Assembly: GCA_029256015.1 (NCBI GenBank)
Contig: JAQSYQ010000008.1
Coordinates: forward strand, 3,041 to 67,040
DNA: 64,000 nt
Source of the DNA: Gammaproteobacteria bacterium
Lineage (GTDB): Bacteria > Pseudomonadota > Gammaproteobacteria > Francisellales > CACEW01
Direction: 5' to 3'
Positions 62,211 to 62,409 of this stretch are shown here, in pieces. The first letter of the stretch is position 1; each line of letters starts with the position of its first letter. The notes beneath the pieces were generated by a model that saw only the letters and a list, made by a program, of their open reading frames with translations, was not told the DNA's origin and did not search any database. A program made the translations under genes and the position numbers.

Positions 62211-62409
62211 AGTCCCGGTATCGAGTTCGTTGCTTATGGTCGCAAGCGCTTGGAAAAATAAGGCTCAAGCTTGTAGATCCGTAGGATGCCGCAAGGGATG
62301 CGGCATGAGGCATACAAGATCAGGGACGTCTGTTATGCCTCATCTTAAGCTTGCGTGAAATTTTTACAAGAACAAGCTTGTGCAAAGTAACGAACTCGAT
62401 ACCGGGACT
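62211..62409 (+). repeat. R1 nested-palindrome element, copy d, enclosed by perfect 21-bp inverted repeats
   Basis: AGTCCCGGTATCGAGTTCGTT (62211-62231) and AACGAACTCGATACCGGGACT (62389-62409). The core is about 85-90% identical to copy c. Confidence 0.9.

Follow-up and report, generated by a model that had tools for sequence, protein, structure and literature searches.

The structured intergenic repeats R1 form a real family that had not been described before, present as four copies (a to d) in a stretch of 64,000 nucleotides from a contig of an uncultured gammaproteobacterium (JAQSYQ010000008.1 of assembly GCA_029256015.1; hereafter the window) and as two copies (e and f) in the related metagenome-assembled genomes GCA_030652335.1 (L063) and GCA_029240275.1 (L067), respectively. 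The six copies of approximately 160 nt, distributed over three genomes, constitute a small, dispersed family, in which no reading frame is kept open across the copies. It is very probable that R1 is a genuine structured repeat family of the mobile type. A fuller description, in which R1 is a new non-coding intergenic family of the kind formed by MITEs (miniature inverted-repeat transposable elements), ERIC, and Correia repeats, with copies that are gained or lost and a single-strand fold that is conserved, is probable with somewhat less assurance; this grading applies to the combined core statement and excludes any step to the regulator CsrA. Small structured repeats are common in bacteria, and few of them have a defined molecular role. 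Even without the ideas on CsrA and on palindrome formation discussed below, R1 represents a clean new repeat and RNA-structure family absent from Rfam.

Copies of R1 and their common fold

The original prediction placed four copies in the window, and all of them are recovered there by an nhmmer profile and by a covariance model, both derived from the R1 copies themselves, with none further in the 64 kb. The profile matches positions 13144–13292 (−), 13361–13517 (+), 30286–30443 (+), and 62232–62390 (+), and the covariance model matches 13141–13297 (−), 13358–13520, 30283–30447, and 62229–62393 with scores of 138–164 bits. Model-independent repeat detection finds R1 blocks of 43–67 nt common to the copies, with 61–89% identity. 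Furthermore, the whole 76-kb source contig contains four copies of R1, all within the known four sites.

Copy a (13141–13297, minus strand) is arranged head-to-head with copy b and faces the open reading frame (ORF) 12990–12493. Copy b (13358–13520, plus strand) is situated 5' of the sigma-32-type promoter of hslVU. In the epmB–msrA spacer, copy c (30269–30459, plus strand) consists of a core at 30283–30447 and a 21-nt copy-specific extension of the outer stem P0. The core of copy d, including the inner P0, P1, P2, H0, HA, and HB, occupies 62229–62393 on the plus strand (covariance model, 154.9 bits; nhmmer, E = 1.6e-47). A common core had been proposed for all four copies; it is present on the plus strand in b, c, and d and on the minus strand in a, where the ATGGTC motif is missing. 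Copy a represents a second subfamily (subfamily II; GCGCYGATAAAA...). In the case of L063, copy e is located at 9180–9336 (+), in the same hyp–hslV spacer as copies a and b, as determined by comparison of the syntenic loci. Copy f of L067 (approximately 10968–11152, −) is located between hemY and a dehydrogenase gene and is divergent, with only the three-hairpin junction fitting the model (30 bits, E of approximately 1e-5).

A covariance-model search with filters off through 98 kb of relatives yields no further copies. Exact-pattern scans give 27 matches in the genome, 6 in the metagenome, and 17 in the viral collections, all of them rejected by nhmmer as chance; the pattern was built from copies a to d and would miss copies such as e and f, so that absence elsewhere is not implied. 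The plasmid and phage collections contain no DNA similar to R1, and blastn against 5,426 E. coli genomes gives no R1 match. In the Rfam search proposed with the original prediction, nothing in the window matches at the gathering score, and at E ≤ 10 copies d, a/b, and e obtain only meaningless sub-threshold hairpin matches, none of them to Csr or Rsm. A chimeric six-frame protein query for ORFs miscalled over R1 finds nothing at E ≤ 1. A type I toxin or other small ORF was also considered and rejected: the frame opened by the ATG of the motif has 5 codons in b, 13 in c, and 42 in d, and this ATG is missing from copy a.

All copies share one architecture, consisting of the outer closing stem P0, P1, an A/U-rich helix, and P2 (CAAGCUU/AAGCUUG). 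The P0, P1, and P2 helices enclose a junction that bears three hairpins, H0, HA, and HB. H0 is a small third hairpin 5' of HA, and its stem covaries between copies (CCC-GAA-GGG, TCC-GAA-GGA, and TCT-GAA-AGA); in copy d it is read as ATCC-GTA-GGAT at 62277–62287 (+). The HA hairpin of copy d, ATGCCGCA-AGGGA-TGCGGCAT, is located at 62286–62306 (+), and its loop GGA (62296–62298) is unpaired in the minimum-energy fold. The adjacent HB hairpin, GAGGCATA...TATGCCTC, spans 62307–62341 (+) and carries the loop CAGGGAC with GGA at 62324–62326. The stem exchanges on which the original prediction was built can be read directly in the sequence. The HA stem is ATGCCGCA/TGCGGCAT in c and d, GATAAGCGCA/TGCGCTTATC in b, and TGATCGCA/TGCGATCA in a, and the HB stem is GGCATA/TATGCC in c and d, GGCACA/TGTGCC in b, and GGCAAA/TTTGCC in a. 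HB is closed by a T-A pair in c and by a G-C pair in d, again as first described.

Covariation was quantified in a model-fitted alignment of only five sequences, in which c and d are closely related. Standard pairs occupy 90.4% of the cells, compared with 76% in column shuffles, and sliding the 3' partners by 1–3 columns lowers pairing to 30–43% of the cells. Changes on both sides exist in 32 of the 60 pairs, against a shuffled mean of 14.5, and the observed covariation is matched by none of 500 shuffles. RNAalifold applied to a plain MAFFT alignment finds 29 of 60 pairs compensated. Each of the eight R1 helices contains at least one compensated pair, which supports the central proposal of selection for the fold and not for the sequence alone. 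For so few copies, the covariation is unusually clear, and the R1 fold is, at the level of these alignments, maintained through compensatory change. Compared with shuffled sequences, folding is strong in e (z = −17.5), d (−12.6), c (−6.6), and b (−6.4), and weak in a (−2.1) and f (−3.0). In copy d, the z-score refers to 62180–62450, which folds with −131 kcal/mol, so that nearly the whole birA–hemC spacer forms one structure.

The same covariation could in principle arise without selection on the fold, as a by-product of palindrome upkeep through intrastrand template switching in an inert repeat. That arm-to-arm copying or an equivalent process does occur is seen in the perfect outer stems of 20–33 bp. 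However, all copies keep an asymmetric 1 × 5 internal loop, located where P1 meets the following helix, together with bulges and the three local hairpins with their loops, which argues against the mere symmetrising of a palindrome. G·U pairs and mismatches occur in the inner stems, in contrast to the perfect outer stems. Furthermore, HB has a stem in e (CCGGGC/GCCCG) and in f (GGTCA/TGACC) that shows no relation to the stems of a to d, and nonetheless the loop GGA and its spacing are retained. An inert origin of the covariation is improbable, and a conserved single-strand fold is the preferred description.

Insertion sites and outer arms

Empty sites in relatives, one of the checks proposed with the original prediction, are found at both hyp–hslV and birA–hemC. 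The hyp–hslV site is occupied in the window (copies a and b) and in L063 (copy e), and it is short and empty in the relatives L057, L064, and L065. The birA–hemC site is occupied in the window by copy d; in L067, the corresponding spacer measures 95 nt and is empty. Compared with L067, the window contains 62198–62450 in addition, outermost arms included, and homology resumes at approximately 62452. Assembly contigs tend to break at repeats, and the short-read Logan contigs break inside copy d. The terminal arms of R1 supply the stop codons of birA (copy d) and hemY (copy f); MITE insertions often supply stop codons. Judging from the orthologous sites that are empty in relatives, the breaks in copy d, and the stop codons derived from the arms, gain or loss of R1 copies takes place within the time that separates the related genomes.

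The C-terminus of BirA reads ...SIKNNRASV in the window and ...SIKKKV in L067, differing where the R1 structure starts. At the other end of the protein, the N-terminal helix-turn-helix domain is absent in the window (61394–62197) and in L067 (6293–7087), and present in L066 (2008–2985).

The length of P0 is 5–7 bp in copies a and b and about 20–33 bp in c, d, e, and f, and its sequence is specific to each copy. The outer inverted repeats previously described around c and d are confirmed. In copy c, the arms are located at 30269–30289 and 30439–30459 (21 nt, 90%). In copy d, inverted-repeat detection places the 5' arm of the extended P0 at 62211–62235 (+) and the 3' arm at 62385–62409 (+), 25 nt long and 96% complementary, with 21 nt perfect. 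Further out, an outermost inverted repeat of 19 nt (89% complementary) surrounds copy d, with a 5' arm at 62182–62200 (+), which includes the last codons and the stop of birA, and a 3' arm at 62415–62433 (+). The outer stems of e and f are perfect over 33 bp and 20 bp, respectively. P0 of c and d has only the innermost TTGCTY/RAGTAA in common, which reads TTGCTT in the 5' arm of d. In the case of e and f, a terminal AGTAAAGCCT is common to the arm tips and resembles the P2 5' strand of subfamily II.

Two explanations had been offered for such arms, and neither agrees well with the observations. Regarding insertion into a pre-existing palindrome, the empty birA–hemC site of L067, a distant relative as an empty-site reference (HemC 73% identical), has no counterpart of the outer arms of copy d and contains, by eye, only a weak, unrelated, imperfect palindrome of 6–7 bp. 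Regarding an outer stem that is free to covary, the perfect stems of 20–33 bp in e and f are unlike the product of slow compensatory drift. These perfect stems suggest instead a recent origin of P0 at the DNA level. One flank may have been copied across the hairpin by fold-back or template switch, extending P0 without selection. Such copying is put forward tentatively, as a possible route to the extensions of P0 and the most economical one.

A second repeat family, R3, of approximately 70 nt and unrelated to R1, occurs at 36516–36586 and 42307–42375 with 89–93% identity. The first copy of R3 lies inside a 24-nt inverted repeat of its own (36477–36500/36595–36618), and the second, at the sufB–sufC junction, has no such wrapper. 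The private wrapping of an element unrelated to R1 hints at a general DNA-level process in this genome by which hairpin elements become surrounded by palindromes.

Near the edges of copies a and b, two further features are observed. The contig of JGI 3300042923 (L028) contains a 51-nt insertion (TTTTGCCTACTTTTGCTTGCTGTAGAGAAAAAGTAGGGCGGTCATAGGGTG; L028 9860–9910) at window position 13522/13523, 2 nt beyond the 3' end of copy b. The insertion, an indel within the population, possesses small hairpins of its own and does not extend P0. A G+C-rich palindrome (CCCCTGCCCTCCTTTAAAAAAGGAGGGGCTAGGGG) occupies 13318–13352, within the 68-nt spacer that separates a from b.

The main rival to a role of the folded RNA is a DNA-only explanation. 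R1 would be a non-autonomous element that an enzyme encoded elsewhere in the genome, for example of the HUH type (IS200/IS605 or RAYT-like) or a hairpin-recognising recombinase, mobilises in the form of folded single-stranded DNA or of a cruciform, with HA, HB, and their loops as recognition sites; the covariation would then be selection for transposability, and transcripts would be incidental. Gain and loss between relatives agree with this rival, the private perfect outer stems and the 51-nt indel at the edge of copy b point to border dynamics at the DNA level, and R3 (36516–36586), although unrelated, also has its private 24-nt inverted repeat. However, no transposase is seen in approximately 76 kb of contig, HA and HB are situated in the middle of the element and not terminally as in IS200/IS605-derived elements, and there is no conserved flanking tetranucleotide of the cleavage type. 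A DNA-only element is a possible explanation of R1, although rather an unlikely one. Retrons, attC sites, and bridge RNAs were rejected as candidates, as genes for a reverse transcriptase or an integrase, and IS110 genes, are missing next to R1.

GGA loops and putative CsrA binding

The loops of HA and HB contain an unpaired GGA in all copies a to e; in the predicted fold of copy f, the GGA of HB is partly paired. HA reads CGCA-AGGA-UGCG in b and f, (C/U)GCA-GGGA-UGC(G/A) in a and e, CGCA-AGGGA-UGCG in d, and CGCA-AUGGA-UGCG in c. The loop of HB is AUGGAC in a to c, CAGGGAC in d, and CUGGA in e, and the hairpin of f reads CA-GGA-UG. In the six copies, the GGA of HA is separated from the GGA of HB by 25–28 nt. 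Each copy contains two invariant GGA in the loops and up to two more, and the six cores together contain 21 GGA and 3 of the complement TCC. CsrA dimers bridge two sites located tens of nucleotides apart. In high-affinity targets of CsrA/RsmE, an ANGGAX hexaloop sits directly on a stem, as do AGGGA and AAGGA pentaloops (PMC4005645), and the AGGGA pentaloop, which forms the HA loop of copy d, is a reported high-affinity target of RsmE (PMC4005645). This consensus is fitted by HA in all copies and by HB in most of them.

The match of the loops to the ANGGAX rule and the spacing of the two hairpins make the binding of CsrA by R1 RNA a possibility, albeit a doubtful one. The signature is specific, since two ANGGAX-type hairpins with fixed spacing are kept where the stem sequence is replaced. 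When transcribed in sense, R1 RNA would fold into a closed module with three hairpins, potentially able to clamp a single dimer of the CsrA/RsmA type, and the long P0 duplex might serve as a substrate for a double-strand RNase. Taken as a whole, the reading of R1 as a mobile CsrA-binding cassette, whose dispersed copies jointly form an evolvable sponge for the Csr regulon or a device that rewires it, is speculative and unlikely. If it is true, each R1 insertion would add a CsrA decoy site to any transcript that reads through it, and the private closing stems, built by fold-back copying of the flank at insertion, would insulate the module and mark it for RNase processing. A real GGA signature would link mobile DNA to a global post-transcriptional regulator.

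The genomic context indicates how the copies could be transcribed. Copy c fills the epmB–msrA spacer and ends approximately 20 nt before the msrA start codon, with a ribosome-binding-like AAGGAG motif in between and no room for a promoter in the spacer. Copy d begins within the coding end of birA (ORF 61394–62197). Both copies are probably transcribed in sense by read-through. Between copies b or e and hslV, a sigma-32-type promoter (TTGAAA-N14-CCCCAT) is kept in five genomes with or without the element, at 13555–13585 in the window and at approximately 9383–9413 in L063, 9385–9415 in L057, 9381–9411 in L064, and 3366–3396 in L065. Similarly, L067 and L069 retain the TCGACA-N17-TATCAT promoter that in the window separates copy d from hemC.

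With these conserved promoters situated downstream of the copies b, e, and d, R1 is not the leader of hslVU or hemC. On this ground, R1 as a cis-regulatory element in the 5' untranslated region of a downstream gene, such as a riboswitch, a thermosensor, or a leader, was rejected. Five of the six copies face the downstream gene, as such an element would, but this orientation count is not significant, and the downstream genes are functionally unrelated. A cis-regulatory role of this kind is highly unlikely.

The copies could also be small RNA (sRNA) genes, each with its own promoter, that together form a multi-copy sponge of the Csr/Rsm type; some pseudomonads and Azotobacter carry several RsmX or RsmZ paralogues. 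The two invariant and up to two further GGA per copy, the depletion of TCC, the intergenic position of the copies, and the divergence of a and b from a 68-nt spacer able to hold promoters are consistent with sponge genes. However, consensus scans detect no terminator-like site 3' of any copy and no promoter-like site 5' of any, no GacA/LetA-type box is apparent by eye, and no Csr or Rsm model of Rfam matches even at E ≤ 10. Copy d starts inside birA, and copy c ends close to the msrA start codon. In addition, the closest relatives have empty sites, an unusual situation for core regulators, and two GGA sites per copy would make a sparse sponge. Independent sponge genes are an improbable account of R1.

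Several observations weigh against R1 as a structured element of the mobile type or against the RNA role proposed for it. With six known copies in all, two of which (c and d) are close kin, covariation events are few. Sense-strand folding is favoured by 15–20 kcal/mol in c and d and by 3 kcal/mol in a, whereas in b, e, and f the antisense strand folds equally well or better; the strand asymmetry is inconsistent, and both genes that flank copy f run antisense to it, two points that agree with the DNA-only rival. Strand choice by folding energy, or by the cells with G·U (11) versus A·C (4), was dropped as proof of an RNA role, as the copies disagree and most of the G·U excess is contributed by c and d, which are related. 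Promoters are located downstream of b, e, and d, and sense transcription is thus not assured. No terminal inverted repeats are conserved across all copies, the outer arms being different. Nor is there a clear target-site duplication at the R1 copies: of the duplications sought as proposed originally, a loose AAAAAAT(A)ATAG repeat flanks the whole structure of copy d by eye, and nothing comparable exists at c, e, and f. The window contains no transposase or recombinase, and the contig has no transposase match in Pfam. The descent of the left outer arm of copy e from an ancestral flank was dropped, the similarity to the empty site of L057 not being significant (234 of 2000 shuffles score as high), which leaves the fold-back model without direct support. 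No csrA gene is present in the available sequence, which is a small part of each genome and gives this absence little weight. On the other side, under a DNA-only explanation the excess of GGA over TCC and the exact ANGGAX match would be coincidence.

Known repeat classes and other features of the window

ERIC/IRU in enterobacteria, Correia CREE/NEMIS in Neisseria, and RUP/BOX in pneumococci are small structured MITE-like repeats. Like these, R1 is 100–200 nt long, non-coding, and intergenic, often abuts or overlaps the ends of ORFs, forms an imperfect palindrome that folds as RNA if co-transcribed, and varies in presence among relatives. There are also differences. R1 has no similarity to the E. 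coli genomes, which carry ERIC, and it has neither conserved terminal inverted repeats nor an evident target duplication. Compared with the single long hairpin of these repeats, the interior of R1 is a multi-hairpin junction with conserved GGA loops, and its closing stem varies by copy and is often perfect. R1 behaves like the MITE/ERIC/Correia class but falls outside the strict definition of a MITE, as its copies share no terminal repeats and show no clear target duplications.

Similar loops, of the form A(N)GGA(X) and placed directly on stems, occur in the Csr/Rsm sponges (CsrB, CsrC, RsmX, RsmY, and RsmZ). As in CsrA-binding hairpins, two adjacent hairpins 25–28 nt apart may suit one dimer, and TCC is depleted on the same strand. 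Unlike the sponges, R1 possesses only two invariant sites, no detected promoter or terminator of its own, and no Rfam match; it is dispersed, gained and lost, and enclosed in a long closing duplex, and its CsrA binding is putative. With REP/BIME-RAYT and IS200/IS605-derived elements, R1 has in common a hairpin-based, non-coding, strand-specific organisation in which compensatory change keeps the structure. In contrast to REP, a GC-rich imperfect palindrome of 20–40 nt with a conserved 5' tetranucleotide, R1 is approximately 160 nt long with nested helices, and its hairpins are internal and not subterminal. The window contains no visible Y1 or HUH transposase gene. In Coxiella burnetii, an intracellular gammaproteobacterium, the QMITE elements are MITE-type repeats that overlap sRNA genes and contribute to small RNAs; they provide a lead only.

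The window has a G+C content of 42.7% and is identical, apart from the 51-nt indel, to the 76-kb contig of JGI 3300042923 and to a contig of 3300042934; in the case of L028, the identity is 100% over 20.5 kb except for the insertion. The genes of the window are housekeeping genes and include the fts/mur cluster, usp, hslVU, epmB, msrA, folE, and the suf operon, as well as rpmH-rnpA-yidC, dnaA-dnaN, birA, and hemCD. The nearest relatives are metagenome-assembled genomes of Gammaproteobacteria, with HslU 85–89% and HemC 67–77% identical. A look-up of ribosomal protein L34 for relatives returned the same organism only.

A third short repeat, of 52 nt and 75% identity, is located at 11335–11386, upstream of usp, and at 61317–61368, in the dnaN–birA spacer. 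The rpmH–dnaA spacer (58520–58686) contains a DnaA-box-like TGTGGATAA at approximately 58592 and a 22-nt imperfect inverted repeat (58520–58541/58665–58686). The chromosomal replication origin, or a dnaA control region, is probably situated within the window.

A protein conserved in this lineage, with faint or weak matches to the mitochondrial carrier family of Pfam, is encoded at 15912–16841 of L052, past the end of the window, at 16635–17588 of L066, and at 13262–14170 of L067. Proteins of the mitochondrial carrier type occur in intracellular bacteria such as Legionella. This parallel hints at a possible host-associated lifestyle of the lineage.

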